Of a DNA stretch of 64,000 bases, positions 753 to 8,301 are shown piece after piece. A program made the translations under genes and the position numbers. The DNA is taken from assembly GCF_050920415.1 (NCBI RefSeq), contig NZ_CP169309.1; one strand, 5' to 3'. The notes under the pieces are model-generated. The model saw only the letters and a program-made list of their open reading frames with translations, was not told where the DNA came from and ran no database searches. Source of the DNA: Escherichia coli (GTDB lineage Bacteria; Pseudomonadota; Gammaproteobacteria; Enterobacterales; Enterobacteriaceae). Position 1 is the stretch's first letter; every line of letters begins with the position of its first letter.

Positions 753-866
753 TTATCTCCCATATGCTTTGCGCAAATACAGGTTGGCTATATGAAGATA
801 AGAATCTCCATGTTGTGCAATGAGGCAGGCAGTTTTATACGATGCCTTATGTTTCAGGAAAGTCAT
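753..866 (-). CDS. Possible 37-aa ORF (MTFLKHKASYKTACLIAQHGDSYLHIANLYLRKAYGR)
   Basis: ATG at 866..864 follows GGAGATTATGTT. The stop lies 4 nt before the next start. Below the ORF-track size cutoff. Confidence 0.25.
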   Translation of the reverse strand: MTFLKHKASYKTACLIAQHGDSYLHIANLYLRKAYGR

Positions 867-944
867 AACATAATCTCCTGCGAATAAAGGTTGCAACAAT
901 CCCCGGCGATAAAACCGTAATAAACATTCAGGGAATATTTATTG

Positions 945-1151
945 TTATTGCGCTAATTCTTTTTCGGCAGCAGCTTTTGCATATTCACATGCAAAATTCA
1001 GAATTTCGCTGCCAAGTGTTTTTGTTTCGTGATTACTTGACATATGTAATACCTGTGTTGCATGCAATAAATGATAAACATTTACCGCAAATGAGTCAGG
1101 CTCCAGACAAATGCCTTCATAATCATCTTGTTGTGAGGTTGTTTCTGTCAT
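945..1151 (-). CDS. Hypothetical 68-aa protein, paralog of the N-terminal domain of the 1887..2348 product
   Basis: ATG at 1151 follows AGGAGCA. The motifs DSFAxN..LL.A...H....LG.E...F..EYA.AA are shared with residues ~25-75 of the 153-aa HTH protein. Confidence 0.5.
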   Translation of the reverse strand: MTETTSQQDDYEGICLEPDSFAVNVYHLLHATQVLHMSSNHETKTLGSEILNFACEYAKAAAEKELAQ

Positions 1152-1490
1152 TGCTCCTGAAGTGCATGCGAGCCTGTTTTTGACAATTCTCTTTCCTCTA
1201 ATCACTATATCGGCAACATCTATTGCCTTTACAACCTCCGGGAGAAGTTCCGGGTTTGTATAATCAAAGTCATCAACATGGAGAACAGTTATGTTTTAGA
1301 ACTTTTTCATGGCTTCCTCAGCTGACTTATATGTTCTGCTATATAGCGAGTCTCAGAAGTGTTTTCATATTGAGACTGTTTCCTCAATGATTGATAATTA
1401 GTTACCGGATGCTTATCCGTGTCCGGCGCACGACCACACGTAGCCGCGTGTTGGTCTCCATTTACAATTCAGCTCTCAATGGAGGATAAA

Positions 1491-1718
1491 ATGATTAACG
1501 AAGAGCAACTTGAAAAAGAAATTTCAGCGCTCAAAAAAGAATTAATGTGGCACAAAGTCGCTATCTCTGCATTAATTCGTCAGGTGGTTTCACCTGAAGA
1601 TAAAGTAAATTTTATGAAGCACTTCTCATGTTCATCAAATGAATTTTTTACTGACGGTCCTCATCCAGAGGCTGGTTTTTGGATCCGTCAACTATTTTCG
1701 CAAGATAAGCGTAAATAG
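1491..1718 (+). CDS. Hypothetical 75-aa protein (MINEEQLEKEISALKKEL...)
   Basis: GGAGG at 1481-1485 lies 5 nt before the ATG at 1491. It is the only plus-strand gene in a minus-strand block. Its 3' end overlaps the 1648..1896 ORF by 71 nt. Confidence 0.4.
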   Translation: MINEEQLEKEISALKKELMWHKVAISALIRQVVSPEDKVNFMKHFSCSSNEFFTDGPHPEAGFWIRQLFSQDKRK

Positions 1719-1896
1719 TGTCGTCAATGTTCGCATCGCTCTTGAATTTAAGAGCGATGCTCTTAATATCCTCTGAAATTATTGCCAGATTACCGTATGT
1801 TATATTTTTATTATTGCGCTCAGCGCTTTTTTGTATGCAATCAAGCAATTCACCAATGAGACATATGTGGTAAGCATCACAGTTTTTCATGCGCAA
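1648..1896 (-). CDS. Hypothetical 82-aa protein
   Basis: Its start overlaps the stop of the upstream gene 1887..2348 (10-nt overlap, operon-like). No recognisable domain. Confidence 0.45.
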   Translation of the reverse strand: MRMKNCDAYHICLIGELLDCIQKSAERNNKNITYGNLAIISEDIKSIALKFKSDANIDDTIYAYLAKIVDGSKNQPLDEDRQ

Positions 1897-2348
1897 GTAT
1901 CCCCACCTGTTGGTTTACCGGTTAACAGCCATATCGGGTCGCAACCAAGAACATTTGCCAGTGGGATAAGCATACTGATAGTTGGTTCATACTCTCCGCT
2001 CTCCCACTGGATGATGATTTCTTCATCGAGATCGAGCAGCCTGGCGAGTTCGGCGGTTGTTAAGCCGCAGGCTTCGCGTTGGGTGCGAAGGTTAACCAGC
2101 CAGCCTTTAGGGAAGGATTGTTTTTGTTGTGCAGGAGAAGCCGCAGATAGAGCATATTCATGGATAAATTCCATTACCTCAATGCCCAGTTCCTTTGAGC
2201 GAGCACAATCCAGAAGATGGAATGTGCGTACAGCACTTAGCAAATTTGCAATATTTAATGCAAAGGAATCAAGTTCTAAGCCTTCAAGCGTAACACAGCC
2301 GCAGTTGATAAAATTAGTTGTTTCTGGAGTTGCTTTTAGTGTCTTCAT
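1887..2348 (-). CDS. Unknown N-terminal domain fused to a C-terminal XRE-type helix-turn-helix
   Basis: The C-terminus GLTTAELARLLDLDEEIIIQWESGEYEPTISMLIPLANVLGCDPIWLL is a classic HTH_XRE. It is the first gene behind a near-consensus promoter. Confidence 0.7.
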   Translation of the reverse strand: MKTLKATPETTNFINCGCVTLEGLELDSFALNIANLLSAVRTFHLLDCARSKELGIEVMEFIHEYALSAASPAQQKQSFPKGWLVNLRTQREACGLTTAELARLLDLDEEIIIQWESGEYEPTISMLIPLANVLGCDPIWLLTGKPTGGDTCA

Positions 2349-2353
2349 ATACC

Positions 2354-2399
2354 CACCAACAATTTTAAATTGAATTTAATCAAGTTATAATTGATGGTG
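2354..2399. promoter_or_regulatory. Inverted repeat (possible operator) in the leader of the HTH gene
   Basis: caccaacaatt (2354-2364) and aattgatggtg (2389-2399) form 11-nt arms with one mismatch. The repeat lies between the promoter and the ATG at 2348. Confidence 0.35.
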
Positions 2400-2401
2400 C
2401 G

Positions 2402-2430
2402 ATATTATGCTTTGAGAAATAGGCTGTCAA
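2402..2430 (-). promoter_or_regulatory. Sigma70 promoter (PL-like position) driving 1887..2348
   Basis: On the minus strand: TTGACA (2430..2425), a 17-nt spacer, then TAATAT (2407..2402). Confidence 0.5.
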
Positions 2431-2460
2431 GAAAAAATTGATATCGTGTGTTTTAGGCAG

Positions 2461-2481
2461 AAAAAAACGGGCAAAGCCCGT
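2461..2481 (-). terminator. Intrinsic terminator just downstream of cI
   Basis: On the minus strand: ACGGGC-TTT-GCCCGT hairpin followed by a T7 run. It lies 13 nt after the cI stop. Confidence 0.5.
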
Positions 2482-2493
2482 TAAAATCAAAGA

Positions 2494-3189
2494 CTAACCA
2501 AATCTGTTTATATTGAATGGTACTGATGAGATCACTTTAGACTGGATATAAAGCAGAGCTAACCCCTCTTTTTCGATGCTCCATGGTTGATAATTGGGGT
2601 TATCAGATAACACCATGATTTTGCTTCCAATTTTTTGAAGTCTTTTCACGTAGCATTCTCCATCAAAACAAAATGCATAAATGCCATCGCCATCAAAATA
2701 AGTTACTGTCTTATCAAGAAAAAGAAGGTCGCCAGGTGAGATTGTGGGAGCCATACTGTCTCCTCTGGCGTTACCTATTTCTATATTTTTGAATGCCCGA
2801 TTTCCAACAAGGCGTCGGGCATATTCAGGATCAAGTTCTATTGAGCGCACTACATCTATCAAGTCACCACGGACATGAGTTCCATCACCGCAACTAAACT
2901 CAACATCAAGGACATTAAACACGACGCTATCTGTTCTTGTCTGGTGTTTCTCTTGCGAGGAAAAGGTTGGTGAGGAGTCTTCACCTAAGAACCAGGATTG
3001 TGGATAACCGCTAATCTCGGATAAATGCGCGAGCTTATCACTCCGTGGAAATGTTTTTCCTGTTGTCCAGTACTGCACTGATTGCGCACTCACACCTAAC
3101 TTGCGGGCCAGTTGAGCCTGAGTCCATCCTTTTGCTTTCAGCATCGCGGCTATTCGATTTTCCGTGTTTTTGACGTTCTTCATGACCAA
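2494..3189 (-). CDS. cI: cI-type prophage repressor (HTH plus S24/LexA-like autopeptidase)
   Basis: N-terminal HTH (GWTQAQLARKLGVSAQSVQYW). The C-terminal S24 motifs GDSMAPT and YVKRLQ are present. Divergent from a cro-like gene. Confidence 0.9.
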   Translation of the reverse strand: MVMKNVKNTENRIAAMLKAKGWTQAQLARKLGVSAQSVQYWTTGKTFPRSDKLAHLSEISGYPQSWFLGEDSSPTFSSQEKHQTRTDSVVFNVLDVEFSCGDGTHVRGDLIDVVRSIELDPEYARRLVGNRAFKNIEIGNARGDSMAPTISPGDLLFLDKTVTYFDGDGIYAFCFDGECYVKRLQKIGSKIMVLSDNPNYQPWSIEKEGLALLYIQSKVISSVPFNINRFG

Positions 3190-3316
3190 ATCCTGTGGGT
3201 TTCTTTACAAGGATAAATCTTTACTTGATTTTAGTGTATTCGATCCTTTTGCAACTTGCATGTTAATTTAAACTTGATGTATTCTTGATTTATAAAGTTA
3301 ATATTGGTGCTTTGTT
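3190..3316. promoter_or_regulatory. Divergent immunity control region (OR/PRM/PR-like)
   Basis: 127-bp AT-rich gap between cI and cro. CTTGAT occurs three times (3224, 3273, 3284) and once inverted in the PL-like region (2379-2384). Candidate PR is TTGCAT(3256)-18-TATTCT(3280). A candidate PRM -10 TAAAAT lies on the minus strand at 3233..3228. Confidence 0.4.
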
Positions 3317-3616
3317 ATGAAAGGAAATGATTACGACAAACTTCGTGCATTAATTGCGCAAAATGCCATAGCGCGAAATCTTGGTGTGACGCCGCAAGCG
3401 GTGAATCAGTGGTTTTCAAAAAACACAATTCCTGCTCGTTTCGTTTTACGCGTATGTGAAGTAGTTGCATGGAAGGTCACGCCACATGGCTTAAGGCCAG
3501 ATCTTTATCCTCACCCTGAAGATGGAATTCCTGATTCGTTACGCAAAATTTCAAATCCAAGCCTAGCGCGCACGGAAGATGGGCAGAGTGATTCATCAGA
3601 AATGTCCACGCGATGA
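3317..3616 (+). CDS. Cro/YdaS-like HTH regulator
   Basis: ARNLGVTPQAVNQWFSKNTIP is the YdaS/Cro-type HTH. It sits opposite cI. Confidence 0.75.
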   Translation: MKGNDYDKLRALIAQNAIARNLGVTPQAVNQWFSKNTIPARFVLRVCEVVAWKVTPHGLRPDLYPHPEDGIPDSLRKISNPSLARTEDGQSDSSEMSTR

Positions 3617-3692
3617 ACGGTTACTGAACGAAAAAAGAAAAGCCGGGCCGCACTCCGTCAGCCCGACTTATTCTGATTAGTAAGGGGATTTC

Positions 3693-4547
3693 ATGATGAT
3701 CAATAAACAAAAATTAGTCAACCCTGAAAACTTGCCAGTTATTGAGTGGCAGGGAGTACGTGTAGTTACCACCGAAACGTTGGCGGCGGGATATGGAACA
3801 ACGCCAATCCGTATACAACAGAACTACATTCGAAACGAAGATCGTTTCGTTGAGGGTAAACACTTTTTCAAAATCAGCGGTGATGAGCTGAAATCTTTCC
3901 GACTATCTTTTAGCGAGTCGGTTAATAAACATACAACATCACTTGTCCTCTGGACAGAACGCGGCGCTGCCCGCATGTCAAAAATCGTCGATACAGACGA
4001 GGCCTGGTTGTTCTTCGAAAAAATGGAGCAGGCGTATTTTCGTAAAGCAACGCCTTCTTCAAACACTATTCCAGACTTTGACGATCCGATCGCTGCTGCT
4101 GAAGCGTGGATTGAAGCCAAAAAATCCGAACGCCTTGCTCTCGGGTATGCAGAGCGTCAGGCTCGCTACATCAGCAAACTCGAAAGCCATCTCGCCGATG
4201 GCATCACTCCTGTGCAGTTCTGCAAACAGCTCAACGGTGTAAACACTCGTCAGATTAATGCGTTCCTTGAAGAGCGTAACTGGCTGTATGACGACCGTCC
4301 GGAGGCTATGTATCCGCGCTGGCGTGTAAAAGCGTATGCACGTGACCAATACCTGACTGAGCGTTCTGGGCAGGTTGAGCAGGAAAACGGGGAAATGCGC
4401 GAGATTTTCAAACCACTCCTGAAGAAAAAAGGTGCCGCCTGGTTATATCGCCATTATCTGAACGGCGAACTACCTATGAAGAAAACATGGGATGGGCAAT
4501 TTACCCATAACACTGAGCTCGCGAATCTTTTACAGGAGAGCAAATGA
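3693..4547 (+). CDS. Antirepressor-type protein (ORF6N/KilA-N-like N-terminus, KilAC/Ant-like C-terminus)
   Basis: N-terminus: LPVIEWQGVRVVTTETLAAGYGT...RNEDRFVEGKHFFKISGDELKSF. C-terminus: AEAWIEAKKSERLAL...ITPVQFCKQLNG. AAGGGGA SD. Confidence 0.7.
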   Translation: MMINKQKLVNPENLPVIEWQGVRVVTTETLAAGYGTTPIRIQQNYIRNEDRFVEGKHFFKISGDELKSFRLSFSESVNKHTTSLVLWTERGAARMSKIVDTDEAWLFFEKMEQAYFRKATPSSNTIPDFDDPIAAAEAWIEAKKSERLALGYAERQARYISKLESHLADGITPVQFCKQLNGVNTRQINAFLEERNWLYDDRPEAMYPRWRVKAYARDQYLTERSGQVEQENGEMREIFKPLLKKKGAAWLYRHYLNGELPMKKTWDGQFTHNTELANLLQESK

Positions 4548-4756
4548 TGCAAACCAAGACATGTGTAACTGGTGATGTCGATCTGAAACCTTGCCCGTTC
4601 TGCGGAAATCCGGAAGTACAACTCATTGAGGTGAAATATTTTCTGGATGGCGATGATGGTTATTACGTCGCATGTACTTGCTGTAACGCAAACCAGATTC
4701 CTGATTCGAAAGAACGTGCTGTTCATGACTGGAACCAGCGCGAAAACGCGGATTGA
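4544..4756 (+). CDS. Lar-family restriction-alleviation-like zinc-ribbon protein
   Basis: 70 aa with CPFCG...C.CC and a C-terminal HDWNQR. Resembles the Lar family (Rac Lar), recalled from memory. Start overlaps the upstream stop (ATGA). Confidence 0.55.
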   Translation: MMQTKTCVTGDVDLKPCPFCGNPEVQLIEVKYFLDGDDGYYVACTCCNANQIPDSKERAVHDWNQRENAD

Positions 4757-4792
4757 CGGCGAGTAGGTACAAAATGATCCGCAACCAACATA

Positions 4793-4821
4793 TTGATTCT
4801 GCAATTTCGGGACGTTACACT
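4793..4821 (+). promoter_or_regulatory. Promoter of c4-like cassette A
   Basis: TTGATT (4793-4798), 17 nt, TACACT (4816-4821). Identical hexamers and spacing recur in cassette B, inside a 64-nt block conserved at the nucleotide level. Confidence 0.5.
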
Positions 4822-4934
4822 GTTCCTGCACCTTATAAAGCGGGTGCCGGGGGTCGCAGCCCGGAATTGCATACGGCGATATATGACGCGCCAGCGTCTT
4901 TTTTATCGTCCGCGCTCACGCACGCCAGAATTAT

Positions 4935-5013
4935 GGTGGGCTGGGCAGGGGAGCCGAAAGGCTCGCCGGTTTCCGTATGCGCCGGTACTGCGAACCCTGT
5001 TCAGTTCACCACC
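4935..5013 (+). ncRNA. c4-like antisense RNA, copy A (~79 nt)
   Basis: Terminal stem GGTGG/CCACC and inner stem CAGGG/CCCTG. Hairpin GAGCC-GAAA-GGCTC. Loop tccgtatgc (4972-4980) complements gcatacgga (5052-5060) over the Rha SD. ctgcgaa (4988-4994) complements ttcgcag (5021-5027). Confidence 0.6.
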
Positions 5014-5070
5014 CATGAGTTTCGCAGCTCCGGTGGTGGAAGTTATCCATTGCATACGGAGGCTGCCATC

Positions 5071-5433
5071 ATGGCTACAGTCCCAACTTCCCCATACCTG
5101 AAAATCGAAGTCGTCAACGGCAAAGCTGTTATTTTCTCCCTGCATGTTGCCTGCCACTTTAAGCGCATGCACCAGAACATCGTCGACAAAATCGAGTATC
5201 TGAACTGCTCGCGTGAATTCTTCTCCCGTAATTTCATACCGGGTACTTACCACGTGTATGGCGATTCCCTGCGTGGTTATTACATCACCCTTGATGGCCT
5301 GATGATGCTTCAGCTTGGGTTAAGTCTGCGCACAATGCGGTACTACGAGAGCTGTATTGAAGCATTCCATGAGGCTGAAACCAACCTGAATCACACTGTT
5401 TTCCGTCGTAATCAATGGGAGGTGCGCCCATGA
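5071..5433 (+). CDS. Rha-family phage regulatory/antirepressor protein, copy A (121 aa)
   Basis: GGAGG (5058-5062) lies 8 nt before the ATG at 5071. The pattern VNGKAV.FSL.VA..F.K.H..IV.KI is Phage_pRha-like. The upstream in-frame 106 codons are interpreted as the RNA leader. Confidence 0.7.
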   Translation: MATVPTSPYLKIEVVNGKAVIFSLHVACHFKRMHQNIVDKIEYLNCSREFFSRNFIPGTYHVYGDSLRGYYITLDGLMMLQLGLSLRTMRYYESCIEAFHEAETNLNHTVFRRNQWEVRP

Positions 5434-5445
5434 TTCGCCAACATA

Positions 5446-5474
5446 TTGATTCTGCACTTTTGGGACGTTACACT
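5446..5474 (+). promoter_or_regulatory. Promoter of c4-like cassette B
   Basis: TTGATT (5446-5451), 17 nt, TACACT (5469-5474). Same arrangement as cassette A. Confidence 0.5.
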
Positions 5475-5587
5475 GTCTCTGCACCTTATAAAGCGGGTGC
5501 CGGGATTGGCGTCCTGAAATTCAATATAGAGCATAACCGCGCTCATGCGGTTTTTTCGTGTCATGAGCATTGCTACGCCCAAATTAT

Positions 5588-5666
5588 GGTGGGGCGTGCA
5601 GGGGCATCGCAAGATGCGCCGGGTTCTATGTTGACCGGTTACGCCAACCCTGTACGTCTCACCACC
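5588..5666 (+). ncRNA. c4-like antisense RNA, copy B (~79 nt)
   Basis: Same scaffold as A (GGTGG/CCACC, CAGGG/CCCTG). The hairpin is changed compensatorily to GCATC-GCAA-GATGC. ctatgttga (5626-5634) complements tcaacatag (5704-5712). acgccaa (5641-5647) complements ttggcgt (5674-5680). Confidence 0.6.
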
Positions 5667-5723
5667 TCTGTGATTGGCGTCCCATGTGGTGAGTTCTTTG
5701 AATTCAACATAGGGGCTGTCACC

Positions 5724-6287
5724 ATGACTACTCTCCCAACCCTCTCTCAACCTGAAATTGCGATCGTTGATGGTCAGGCTGTTACATCTTCTTTGGCTGT
5801 TGCTGACTTCTTCTCTAAACGTCATGACGATGTTCTGAAAAAGATCCGCATTTTGGATTGTTCTCCAGAGTTTTGTGCCCGCAATTTTGCGGAGACATCA
5901 ATTTTGGTACACCAGCCCAACGGCGGTACTCGCAAACTTCCTTGCTACCACATCACCCGCGATGGCTTCGCGTTCCTGGCAATGGGCTTTACTGGCAAAC
6001 GTGCAGCCCGGTTCAAAGAGGCATACATCAACGCCTTTAACCAGATGGAGAAGAATTTATCTGGTGCTGACGCGGTTGATATGTCAGCTGTTGCACGAAA
6101 CGCCAGAGGCGTATACCTGCATTTGCGTGAAATCCATCAAATCTGGATAAGCCAGCTTTATCCAATGCTTAAGGCCGTTGAGTCACCGCTGGCTGGCAAA
6201 CTGTACGACCGTGTAGGTGATGCTGTTTTTGGTGCTGCACTTGTTGATTCCAGACTGAATGGTTCTGACAAGGAGGTGCGCCCATGA
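5724..6287 (+). CDS. Rha-family phage regulatory/antirepressor protein, copy B (187 aa)
   Basis: IVDGQAVTSSLAVADFFSKRHDDVLKKIRIL...ITRDGFAFLAMGFTGKRAARFKEAYINAFNQME is a typical Rha (Phage_pRha) domain. The ATG at 5724 follows an AGGGG SD. Confidence 0.8.
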   Translation: MTTLPTLSQPEIAIVDGQAVTSSLAVADFFSKRHDDVLKKIRILDCSPEFCARNFAETSILVHQPNGGTRKLPCYHITRDGFAFLAMGFTGKRAARFKEAYINAFNQMEKNLSGADAVDMSAVARNARGVYLHLREIHQIWISQLYPMLKAVESPLAGKLYDRVGDAVFGAALVDSRLNGSDKEVRP

Positions 6288-7422: not shown

Positions 7423-8301
7423 ATGATGACGATTAACCAACGTGAGAAACAAACAAGACTACAGGCGCGAATGGATGAGTTACGGGCAGAGATTGCATTT
7501 GCTCAGAATGGCGAAAAGCCATGGCCTTACCGCGCCTGCCGGGAATCTGAAGGGGTTGGATGCTGCGAAAAACACGGTAAATATCGTACGCATATACTGG
7601 TGTGGGATGATCGGCAGGGGGGCGCTGTCTCAAAAATTTCCCGCTGTCCGGAGTGTCTGGTGGATGAAATGGATGTGACACATCGGACTCTGGTTGCAAT
7701 GAAAGCTGATGTGCTGATTGAGAATGCTGGTGTTGCCTGTAGGTTTCGCGACTGTGAGTTTGAAAACTATCAGGAGATTAACTCTGATGCAGCCAGAAAT
7801 CTTGCTGCCTGCCGCCGCTATGCAGAGAGCTGGGAGGATGTTCTGGCTAACGGTACCAGTCTTGTTCTGACAGGCAGTTGTGGTACCGGAAAAAATCATC
7901 TGGCTGTGGCTATGGCAAAACACATCATCCGTAACCATCTGGCCAGTGTGGAGATTACTGATGTGATGCGCCTTACCCGTGCTGTGAAAAACTGCTGGCG
8001 GAATGACAGCGAAAAAACAGCGGATGAAGTTATTGAGCATTATGCGTCATTGGATTTGCTGATCATCGACGAAGTCGGCGTTCAGTTTGGCAGCGCGGCT
8101 GAAATGGCTATTTTGCAGGAAATTATCAATGCCCGGTACGAAAGCATCCTGCCCACCATCCTGATCAGCAACCTTTCACCGGAAGAGTTGTGGGCGTTCA
8201 TCAGCCCCCGCATTGCCGACAGGATCACAGACGGGGGACGCAACTGGTTGTCGTTTAACTGGCCCAGCTATCGTGCGCATATTGGAGGTGTGGCTGCATG
8301 A
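7423..8301 (+). CDS. DnaC/IstB-like AAA+ helicase loader
   Basis: Walker A GSCGTGKNHLAVAMA and Walker B LLIIDEVG. N-terminal Cys-rich region. Start is uncertain (GTG 7414, ATG 7423 or 7426). Confidence 0.8.
   Translation: MMTINQREKQTRLQARMDELRAEIAFAQNGEKPWPYRACRESEGVGCCEKHGKYRTHILVWDDRQGGAVSKISRCPECLVDEMDVTHRTLVAMKADVLIENAGVACRFRDCEFENYQEINSDAARNLAACRRYAESWEDVLANGTSLVLTGSCGTGKNHLAVAMAKHIIRNHLASVEITDVMRLTRAVKNCWRNDSEKTADEVIEHYASLDLLIIDEVGVQFGSAAEMAILQEIINARYESILPTILISNLSPEELWAFISPRIADRITDGGRNWLSFNWPSYRAHIGGVAA

Follow-up and report, generated by a model that had tools for sequence, protein, structure and literature searches.

What is the first gene that a phiP27-like prophage transcribes leftwards from its immunity region, if it resembles neither the rex genes nor N of lambda? 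The question is raised by a stretch of 64,000 nucleotides (nt) of the Escherichia coli contig NZ_CP169309.1 (assembly GCF_050920415.1), hereafter the window, which begins within the left arm of an E. coli lambdoid prophage and whose minus strand carries, in this order, the repressor gene cI, a terminator, a promoter, a gene for a protein of 153 amino acids (aa) and several small open reading frames (ORFs); the coordinates are collected in Table 1. An earlier note, made from the letters alone, had read the 153-aa gene and its small neighbours as a strongly promoted cassette in the rexAB/PL position. Our analysis leads to a different view: the segment is the early-left control region, together with the first genes, of a phiP27-like lambdoid prophage integrated at yecE, in which the 153-aa gene comes first and stands where lambda has N. 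What we have here is a genuine early-gene module, conserved among E. coli prophages and not yet characterised, and the product of the 153-aa gene is a three-part mosaic of a variable acidic two-helix hairpin, a basic linker and a helix-turn-helix (HTH) domain of the XRE fold. Since it follows an early-left promoter (PL) and does not belong to a rexAB-like cassette, the locus is more ordinary in position than first thought; it is odder in its protein chemistry.

The evidence for this placement lies in the operators. A near-consensus promoter directly behind the cI terminator is indeed present, and both of its hexamers are kept in relatives with a cI protein 88-100% identical to that of the window; promoter-consensus matches by themselves are hardly more frequent in the region than expected (8 against 6.9). 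A search of the 64-kb window with the perfect palindrome ATCAA-N7-TTGAT found at 2379-2395, allowing up to two mismatches, gave 51 matches, 6 of them inside two regulatory regions of ~100 nt, the left and right operators (OL and OR), which amounts to a ~37-fold enrichment. Because sites of the OR type cover both the -35 hexamer and the expected start site, we read the promoter as the equivalent of PL/OL, and because such sites flank it, it is probably repressed by cI, most likely silent in the lysogen and firing on induction or infection, an outcome that the earlier note itself had counted against its reading. A leftward promoter behind the cI terminator, overlapped by operators common to OR, is the lambda-type PL/OL layout. 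The sharing of motifs between OL and OR is found in two other immunity types as well. In phiP27, the -10 hexamer and the start codon are separated by a long inverted repeat composed of a TTGATAC...GTAAC motif, of which OR has two further copies. In L085 (region 3120..4010), a distant relative of the 153-aa gene follows a P22-immC-like repressor, and operators of the P22 type (AAAGTTATCTTAA and relatives) are found in OR as well as in OL; the gene thus takes the place of gene 24/N in a P22-like immunity region.

The 11-nt-arm inverted repeat pointed out between this promoter and the 153-aa gene (2354-2399) is there too: CACCAACAATT (2354-2364) pairs with AATTGATGGTG (2389-2399) at 10 of 11 positions, and the segment folds at -14.9 kcal/mol (z = -2.9). 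It is composed of the outer halves of the two inner operator sites (2379-2395 and 2358-2374) plus CACC/GGTG. As a hairpin in the RNA leader it fares poorly, since transcription starting ~7 nt after the -10 hexamer leaves the GC-rich outer pairs untranscribed, and the hairpin that remains (-5.3 kcal/mol, z ~0) is no better than shuffled sequences; the left arm of the corresponding repeat in phiP27 overlaps the -10 hexamer itself. For these reasons we read the arms as DNA operators. A search of Rfam returned nothing of note.

The product of the gene is recognisable in part. Pfam HTH_3 matches residues 87-141 with 45.1 bits (cut-off 23, E = 1e-11), and an AlphaFold2 model, built on a 26-sequence alignment, divides the chain into a disordered stretch (1-24), a two-helix hairpin (26-69, nt 2142-2273; helices 26-45 and 49-69, predicted local distance difference test (pLDDT) score ~80), a flexible linker rich in K, Q, N and R, and the XRE fold (87-143, nt 1920-2090), whose five helices span 81-143 with pLDDT 80-90. 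The best structural match found by Foldseek is the N-terminal domain of the P22 c2 repressor (3jxb), with a root-mean-square deviation of 0.8 A over 63 residues, a target-normalised template modelling (TM) score of 0.90 and 30% identity; against PDB and BFVD only the HTH found a match and the hairpin did not. The N-terminal domain likewise has no match in Pfam, NCBIfam, PADLOC or the PDB sequences, in line with its earlier description as uncharacterised, and PADLOC reports generic HTH matches only. Nor does any gene here resemble N, RexAB, SieB or Kil in Pfam, PHROGs, NCBIfam or PADLOC, as the earlier note had also stated, and a literature search on phiP27 L10 and on prophage regulators of enterohaemorrhagic E. 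coli (RgdR, Psr) led to unrelated proteins.

Detectable homologs number 156, nearly all in Escherichia, and the family (phrog_4836) is restricted to enterobacterial prophages. Most homologs are ~230 aa long and contain two tandem XRE domains, and the 153-aa form is an in-frame fusion at a repeated GCDP motif that leaves one XRE domain; one-HTH and two-HTH forms are both common. We considered whether the 153-aa gene and the small ORF behind it are a frameshifted 230-aa homolog and rejected this, the extra 80 aa of the long forms being a second HTH.

The family has a mosaic structure. Across the 80 related viral contigs that served for the comparison of modules and synteny, a nearly invariant HTH core is combined with at least seven very different versions of the N-terminal domain, which we designate by letters, and with five C-terminal tails. 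The joint between the window and phiP27 falls at nt 2090, that is at residue 87, exactly where the HTH begins. N-domain type goes with the neighbouring repressor: type A accompanies cI proteins 98-100% identical to that of the window, B those 93% and C those 88% identical, and the other types accompany unrelated repressors. The cI proteins found with A, B and C have their recognition helix and C-terminal domain in common, and the N-domains of the 153-aa homologs beside them differ.

Rates of synonymous (dS) and nonsynonymous (dN) substitution between the window and the related locus L052 bring out the contrast between the two halves of the protein. The whole of cI gives dS 1.6 and dN 0.04, and its C-terminal domain dS 1.38 and dN 0.014; the N-domain of the 153-aa protein gives dS 1.6 and dN 0.41, and its HTH core dS 0.6 and dN 0.047, with a dN of only 0.008 for the HTH core against locus L062. 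The ratio dN/dS is thus ~0.01-0.08 for the HTH, at a dS of ~0.6, and ~0.22-0.25 for the N-domain. Judged from these rates, the HTH matches cI in constraint and experiences strong purifying selection, and the N-domain evolves ~10 times faster, yet also under purifying selection. The same values show that the association of N-domain and repressor is not a simple linkage gradient.

The hairpin also circulates as a free protein. The earlier note had observed by eye that the N-terminal domain is paralogous to a separate ORF of 68 aa downstream, and the similarity is well supported: BLASTP aligns the two with 18 of 42 residues identical (43%, E = 7e-10), their PHROG profiles match each other reciprocally, and they fall into one cluster at E < 1e-5 when the 219 small ORFs of the 80 related loci are compared. 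The N-domains of types A, B and C form a single BLAST cluster with the free 68-aa type (65 fused and 57 free copies), to which the N-domains of types D and E and a free ORF of L062 are joined by hhalign (probability 87%, E = 4e-6). In L062, a C-type relative, two small hairpin ORFs follow the HTH gene (4400..4800), one E-type-like and one H-type-like; since these free ORFs resemble E- and H-type N-domains, fused and free modules seem to be drawn from one pool. The family is small, a profile search of 1.84 billion representative proteins yielding only 17 hairpin clusters, in which the hairpin occurs free (60-80 aa), with an N-terminal extension (~120 aa) or fused to an HTH.

As for the 68-aa ORF itself, it stands as a hairpin paralog and not as a gene of its own. 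It is the last 68 residues of a 121-aa gene (phiP27 L08), whose N-terminal 53 codons have been lost here to a nonsense mutation, an allele that, among the loci checked, the window has in common only with NZ_CP169399; what remains can be read as 86 aa from a GTG or as 68 aa from an ATG. The N-terminal extension is coding in other phages, where it is ~40% identical and carries an in-frame indel of 4 codons in distant copies. A free hairpin-family ORF lies directly 3' of the HTH gene in the 80 related loci and in one distant relative, which keeps the order cI, hairpin-HTH gene and a 67-aa hairpin protein; the HTH stop either overlaps the start of this ORF, often as ATGA, or abuts it. In relatives without the insert described below, the overlap is with the ATG of the 121-aa gene, in whose place other phages carry a version of 63-67 aa or a pair of dissimilar hairpin ORFs.

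We tentatively favour, at a little short of even chances, an explanation in which the 153-aa protein is an early regulator that oligomerises through its hairpin and is modulated by the co-transcribed free hairpin. PL would be silent in the lysogen and would fire on induction or infection; the 153-aa protein, as the first PL product, would then act as an early regulator, oligomerising through the hairpin. The free hairpin protein made from the same transcript would form mixed oligomers with it and thereby tune or switch off its activity, as SinI acts on SinR. The DNA target of the 153-aa protein, if it has one, would be other than its own promoter.

Several observations weigh against this explanation. 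The first is charge: residues 87-143 include 3 basic and 10 acidic residues, giving these 57 residues a net charge of -7 and an isoelectric point (pI) of 4.05, and the XRE domains of all 26 aligned relatives are acidic (net -4 to -8), as is each of the two HTH copies in the 230-aa forms. In the window itself, the HTH regions of cI and Cro carry +5 and +3, and the corresponding charge of P22 c2 and 434 is +4 to +9. The domain had been called a canonical XRE HTH, which describes its fold well and its charge not at all. At the start of the recognition helix, the tool alignment places D108-E109-E110 where P22 c2 has S31-N32-V33, which is atypical for a protein that reads DNA, and most of the arginines and lysines of P22 c2 helix 1 are lost. 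In favour of a regulator that contacts DNA, on the other hand, R91 and Q114 are invariant among the relatives and correspond to R14 and Q37, which belong to the DNA-contact residues of P22 c2 (PMC5175364), and the linker is rich in K, Q, N and R. The second is the operator: no 8- to 12-mer motif is common to the PL regions of the five unrelated immunity types that precede this HTH, and no candidate operator for the 153-aa protein was found. The third concerns the partner. By hhalign, N-domains of types F, H and I show no link to the hairpin family, and free and fused hairpins do not vary together in type: one and the same 121-aa protein stands behind types A, D, E, F and G. As homology to the hairpins is not detectable for N-domains of type F and related ones, a specific fused/free heterodimer cannot be general, and the failure of free and fused types to covary disfavours strict specificity between them. 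The earlier suggestion of a decoy-like free domain stays viable, and it gains from the free hairpin ORF that directly follows the HTH gene in relatives.

The acidic HTH and the missing operator make a non-DNA-binding function a strong rival. The 153-aa protein could be an early anti-repressor or decoy whose acidic XRE domain and hairpin cover, for instance, the basic face with which cI or some other HTH protein binds DNA, and so lock the lytic decision once PL fires, the free hairpins being further modules of this kind. We regard this as less likely than the early regulator and likelier than the other rivals. In its favour, the net charge of -7 is kept family-wide under strong purifying selection, both copies of the long forms are acidic too, and the charge comes with an acidic DEE at the head of the recognition helix and a helix 1 mostly stripped of basic residues. 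The PL regions without a shared operator, the common occurrence of one-HTH and two-HTH forms, a change of N-domain type along with the immunity region and the precedent of Mor in TP901-1 (PMC11149083, PMC7250872) point the same way. Against it, the linkage of N-domain and cI may be mere adjacency, the two lying 150 bp apart; the cI proteins of types A, B and C present the same recognition helix and C-terminal domain to different N-domains; the DNA-contact equivalents R91 and Q114 are invariant; and the phage already has Cro and an ORF6N/Ant-like protein in its PR operon. Extended to the whole family, the idea would be that these are modular early acidic protein-binding decoys and not DNA-binding regulators, in which the acidified XRE face mimics DNA or occludes a repressor HTH and the interchangeable hairpins, also circulating free, give specificity; in this general form we find it distinctly doubtful.

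The same comparison of PL regions bears on whether the inverted repeat is the operator of the HTH protein. As the HTH is near-invariant and the PL regions have no motif in common, this is unlikely, and Aca-like autoregulation with it. An anti-defence locus of the acr-aca kind, in which the variable acidic hairpins inhibit host or prophage defence and the conserved HTH is an Aca-like autorepressor, would suit the strong promoter with its inverted repeats, the first place in an immediate-early operon, a highly conserved HTH beside variable small acidic proteins and the presence of a Lar restriction-alleviation gene elsewhere in the early region. We nevertheless consider it improbable: the repeats vary with immunity type and the HTH does not, they match the OR motif and so look like cI sites, PADLOC gave nothing beyond the generic HTH matches, and an N-domain dN/dS of ~0.25 carries no sign of positive selection.

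Little probability also attaches to the 153-aa protein as an activator of lysogeny establishment like lambda CII, with the free hairpin in the role of CIII. What suggests it is the label 'CII-like regulator' of phrog_4836 and the annotation 'putative CII repressor' in phage ASU11, both unreferenced, together with the lack of a cII-like gene to the right of cro in this phage and the co-transcription of a small helical protein in the PL operon. In sequence, neither CII nor CIII has a counterpart here: the 153-aa protein does not match the lambda CII family in Pfam or PHROGs, and its gene lies to the left of cI where that of CII lies to the right of cro. Moreover, an invariant HTH with this function would need a conserved site near cI, whereas phages with the same HTH have entirely different immunity regions and entirely different DNA to the right of cro, and the domain is acidic.

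In the window, the HTH gene is separated from the hairpin gene by an optional insert of 580 bp; in a comparison of 82 related loci (L001-L082), 19 have it and the others lack it. Because the 8-bp sequence ATGAAAAA stands at both of its ends, the insert could arise or be lost by recombination between the two gene starts. It contains the ORF that had been reported to overlap the 153-aa gene, where it indeed lies; it probably begins at the later ATG (80 aa, not 82), which forms an ATGA with the stop of the 153-aa gene at the junction normally used by the 121-aa hairpin gene. Two alleles of the insert differ by ~12%, and in each of its two unique parts the substitutions follow a coding pattern, the 80-aa ORF having a proportion of synonymous differences (pS) of 0.21 and of nonsynonymous differences (pN) of 0.05 in its own frame. 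This ORF belongs to phrog_23054 and has only 5 clusters of close relatives; its AlphaFold2 model (pLDDT 61) is too low in confidence for a fold search. It and the second gene of the insert, of 75 aa, match close relatives only and no family in NCBIfam, PADLOC or, beyond phrog_23054, PHROGs.

These features decide against the 80/82-aa ORF as a dedicated partner, since most relatives that retain the 153-aa gene lack the insert, and they leave it very improbable that the genes form a lysogen-expressed cassette with a cI-independent promoter, in which the 153-aa and 82-aa proteins are a toxin-antitoxin or exclusion pair and the 68-aa ORF a decoy. The near-consensus promoter, the ATGA overlap and an HTH that resembles antitoxin HTHs, generically only, speak for such a cassette; the operator-type sites over the -35 hexamer and the start site, the ordinary use of the ATGA junction by the 121-aa gene and the absence of any toxin, antitoxin or defence signature in PADLOC and NCBIfam, with no toxin model for the 80-aa ORF in particular, speak against it.

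The 75-aa gene is convergent, antisense to the PL operon and overlapping the 3' end of the 80-aa ORF by 71 nt. Its leader is structured, with two strong hairpins in 90 nt (-29.5 kcal/mol), and of the 14 differences between its alleles 11 affect third codon positions; the spacer between the Shine-Dalgarno sequence and the ATG contains a 1-nt indel. The gene has the look of a lysogen-expressed moron. Just past its stop, inside the 80-aa ORF, stands a perfect 14-nt palindrome (1733-1760).

In strain MFDS1022581 a 99.9% identical copy adjoins yecE; beyond it on the left come an integrase and an excisionase, and on the right head and tail genes resembling those of lambda. DNA similar to positions 900-3700 of the window (2.8 kb) occurs in 1035 of 5426 complete E. 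coli genomes, about a fifth, as well as in the phages PhiR49_2, phiP27 (an Stx2e phage) and several Stx1a and Stx2a phages. The cI gene of the window is intact, and the plus strand carries Cro and the ORF6N/Ant-like gene of the PR operon. In L001 (NZ_CP169399), which matches the window at 99.9% identity, the annotation splits cI into two coding sequences, S24 peptidase and HTH (7595..8283); many of its late genes are frameshifted and IS66 is inserted, so that this copy is a decaying prophage. The Lar-family gene of the early region is followed downstream by two adjacent Ash-family paralogs (4753..5433 and 5415..6287, plus strand) with similar N-termini (IRNQHIDSAISGRYTVPAPYKAGAG and IRQHIDSALLGRYTVSAPYKAGAG). 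A conserved ORF of 37 aa without any family match separates the hairpin gene from the gene that comes next; it is intact in the diverged relatives L031, L048 and L052 and annotated in PhiR49_2.

Table 1. Coordinates of the features of the early-left region and its surroundings in the window
Feature	Position	Strand	Particulars
cI repressor	2494..3183	-	XRE HTH and S24 peptidase; ORF, Pfam, PHROG
Cro-like (YdaS-family) gene	3317..3616	+	ORF and Pfam
Sites in OR, type as in OL	3213-3229, 3262-3278, 3292-3308		pattern search; between cI and cro
Intrinsic terminator of the cI (PRM) transcript	2482..2466	-	7-bp stem, 5 GC pairs, then TTTTTTT
Early-left promoter (PL equivalent)	2430..2402	-	TTGACA-17-TAATAT, 10/12 to consensus
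Putative cI/Cro operator (OL)	2426-2442		ATCAAG-N5-xTTGAT type; covers -35
Putative cI/Cro operator (OL)	2379-2395		ATCAAG-N5-xTTGAT type; covers expected start site
Putative cI/Cro operator (OL)	2358-2374		ATCAAG-N5-xTTGAT type
153-aa protein	1887..2348	-	ORF; phrog_4836, E = 1.3e-76 over residues 1-151
Optional 580-bp insert	1311..1890		8-bp direct repeat ATGAAAAA at 1883-1890 and 1303-1310 (minus-strand reading)
80-aa ORF	1648..1890	-	likely start ATG 1890..1888; 82 aa from TTG 1896 (1648..1896)
Convergent 75-aa gene	1491-1718	+	promoter TTGAGA-17-GATAAT at 1370-1398; PGAP call
121-aa gene remnant (phiP27 L08)	945..1310	-	TAA at codon 5 (1298..1296); 68-aa hairpin ORF 945..1151 is the C-terminal part
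37-aa ORF	753..866	-	MTFLKHKASYKTACLIAQHGDSYLHIANLYLRKAYGR; good Shine-Dalgarno sequence

In a group of E. coli prophages that includes the Stx2e phage phiP27 and several Stx1a and Stx2a phages, the 153-aa gene has the foremost of the early positions, which in lambda belongs to N. If its product controls early-left expression or the commitment to lytic growth, it bears on prophage induction and hence on the release of Shiga toxin. If, instead, the acidic XRE fold binds no DNA, the family would offer a clear example of how a repressor fold can become a decoy that binds proteins; such a system could allow the prophage to inactivate its own repressor, or the repressors and defence proteins of competing prophages, right after PL fires, and the hairpin modules would then be a new family of small proteins without a Pfam entry.

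How does this locus compare with systems that are understood? In lambda, cI is followed by rexAB, the terminator t_imm, PL-OL and N, a small basic antiterminator. The succession of cI, a terminator, a leftward promoter overlapped by operators of the OR type and a first early-left gene is common to both; rexAB is missing here, no nut-like boxA/boxB was seen in the leader, and the product is a folded acidic hairpin-plus-XRE protein and not a small basic one. With the repressors of P22 (c2) and 434 the 153-aa protein has in common the five-helix fold and the equivalents of R14 and Q37, and it differs from them in the net charge of its XRE domain (-7 against +4 to +6), in the D-E-E that replaces S31-N32-V33, in the lack of an S24 domain and in the C-terminal position of the HTH. 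The likeness to acr-aca loci consists in the strong early promoter with inverted repeats and the conserved HTH beside variable small acidic proteins; the repeats here follow the immunity type and the OR motif and not the conserved HTH, and an anti-defence signature was not found.

Two further systems work through contacts between proteins. Mor of TP901-1 and phi13 is an HTH protein that binds the N-terminal domain of CI (PMC11149083, PMC7250872). Like the 153-aa protein it is an HTH-fold protein and the first product of a promoter that is repressed by CI, as PL here probably is, on the lytic side in its own phages, and it works by contact with CI; it is a single small domain in the Cro position, whereas the present phage has a separate Cro and a contact between the 153-aa protein and cI is hypothetical. 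SinR and SinI of Bacillus subtilis are a regulator and its antagonist, SinI acting on SinR (PMC3163267). The 153-aa and 68-aa proteins have no sequence relationship to either; their module is N-terminal where that of SinR is C-terminal, the free copy is co-transcribed downstream and does not covary in type with the fused one, and the heterodimer here is hypothetical. Here as in B. subtilis, an HTH protein of the XRE type carries a two-helix module, for oligomerisation in SinR and presumably in the 153-aa protein, and the adjacent gene encodes a small free paralog of that module.

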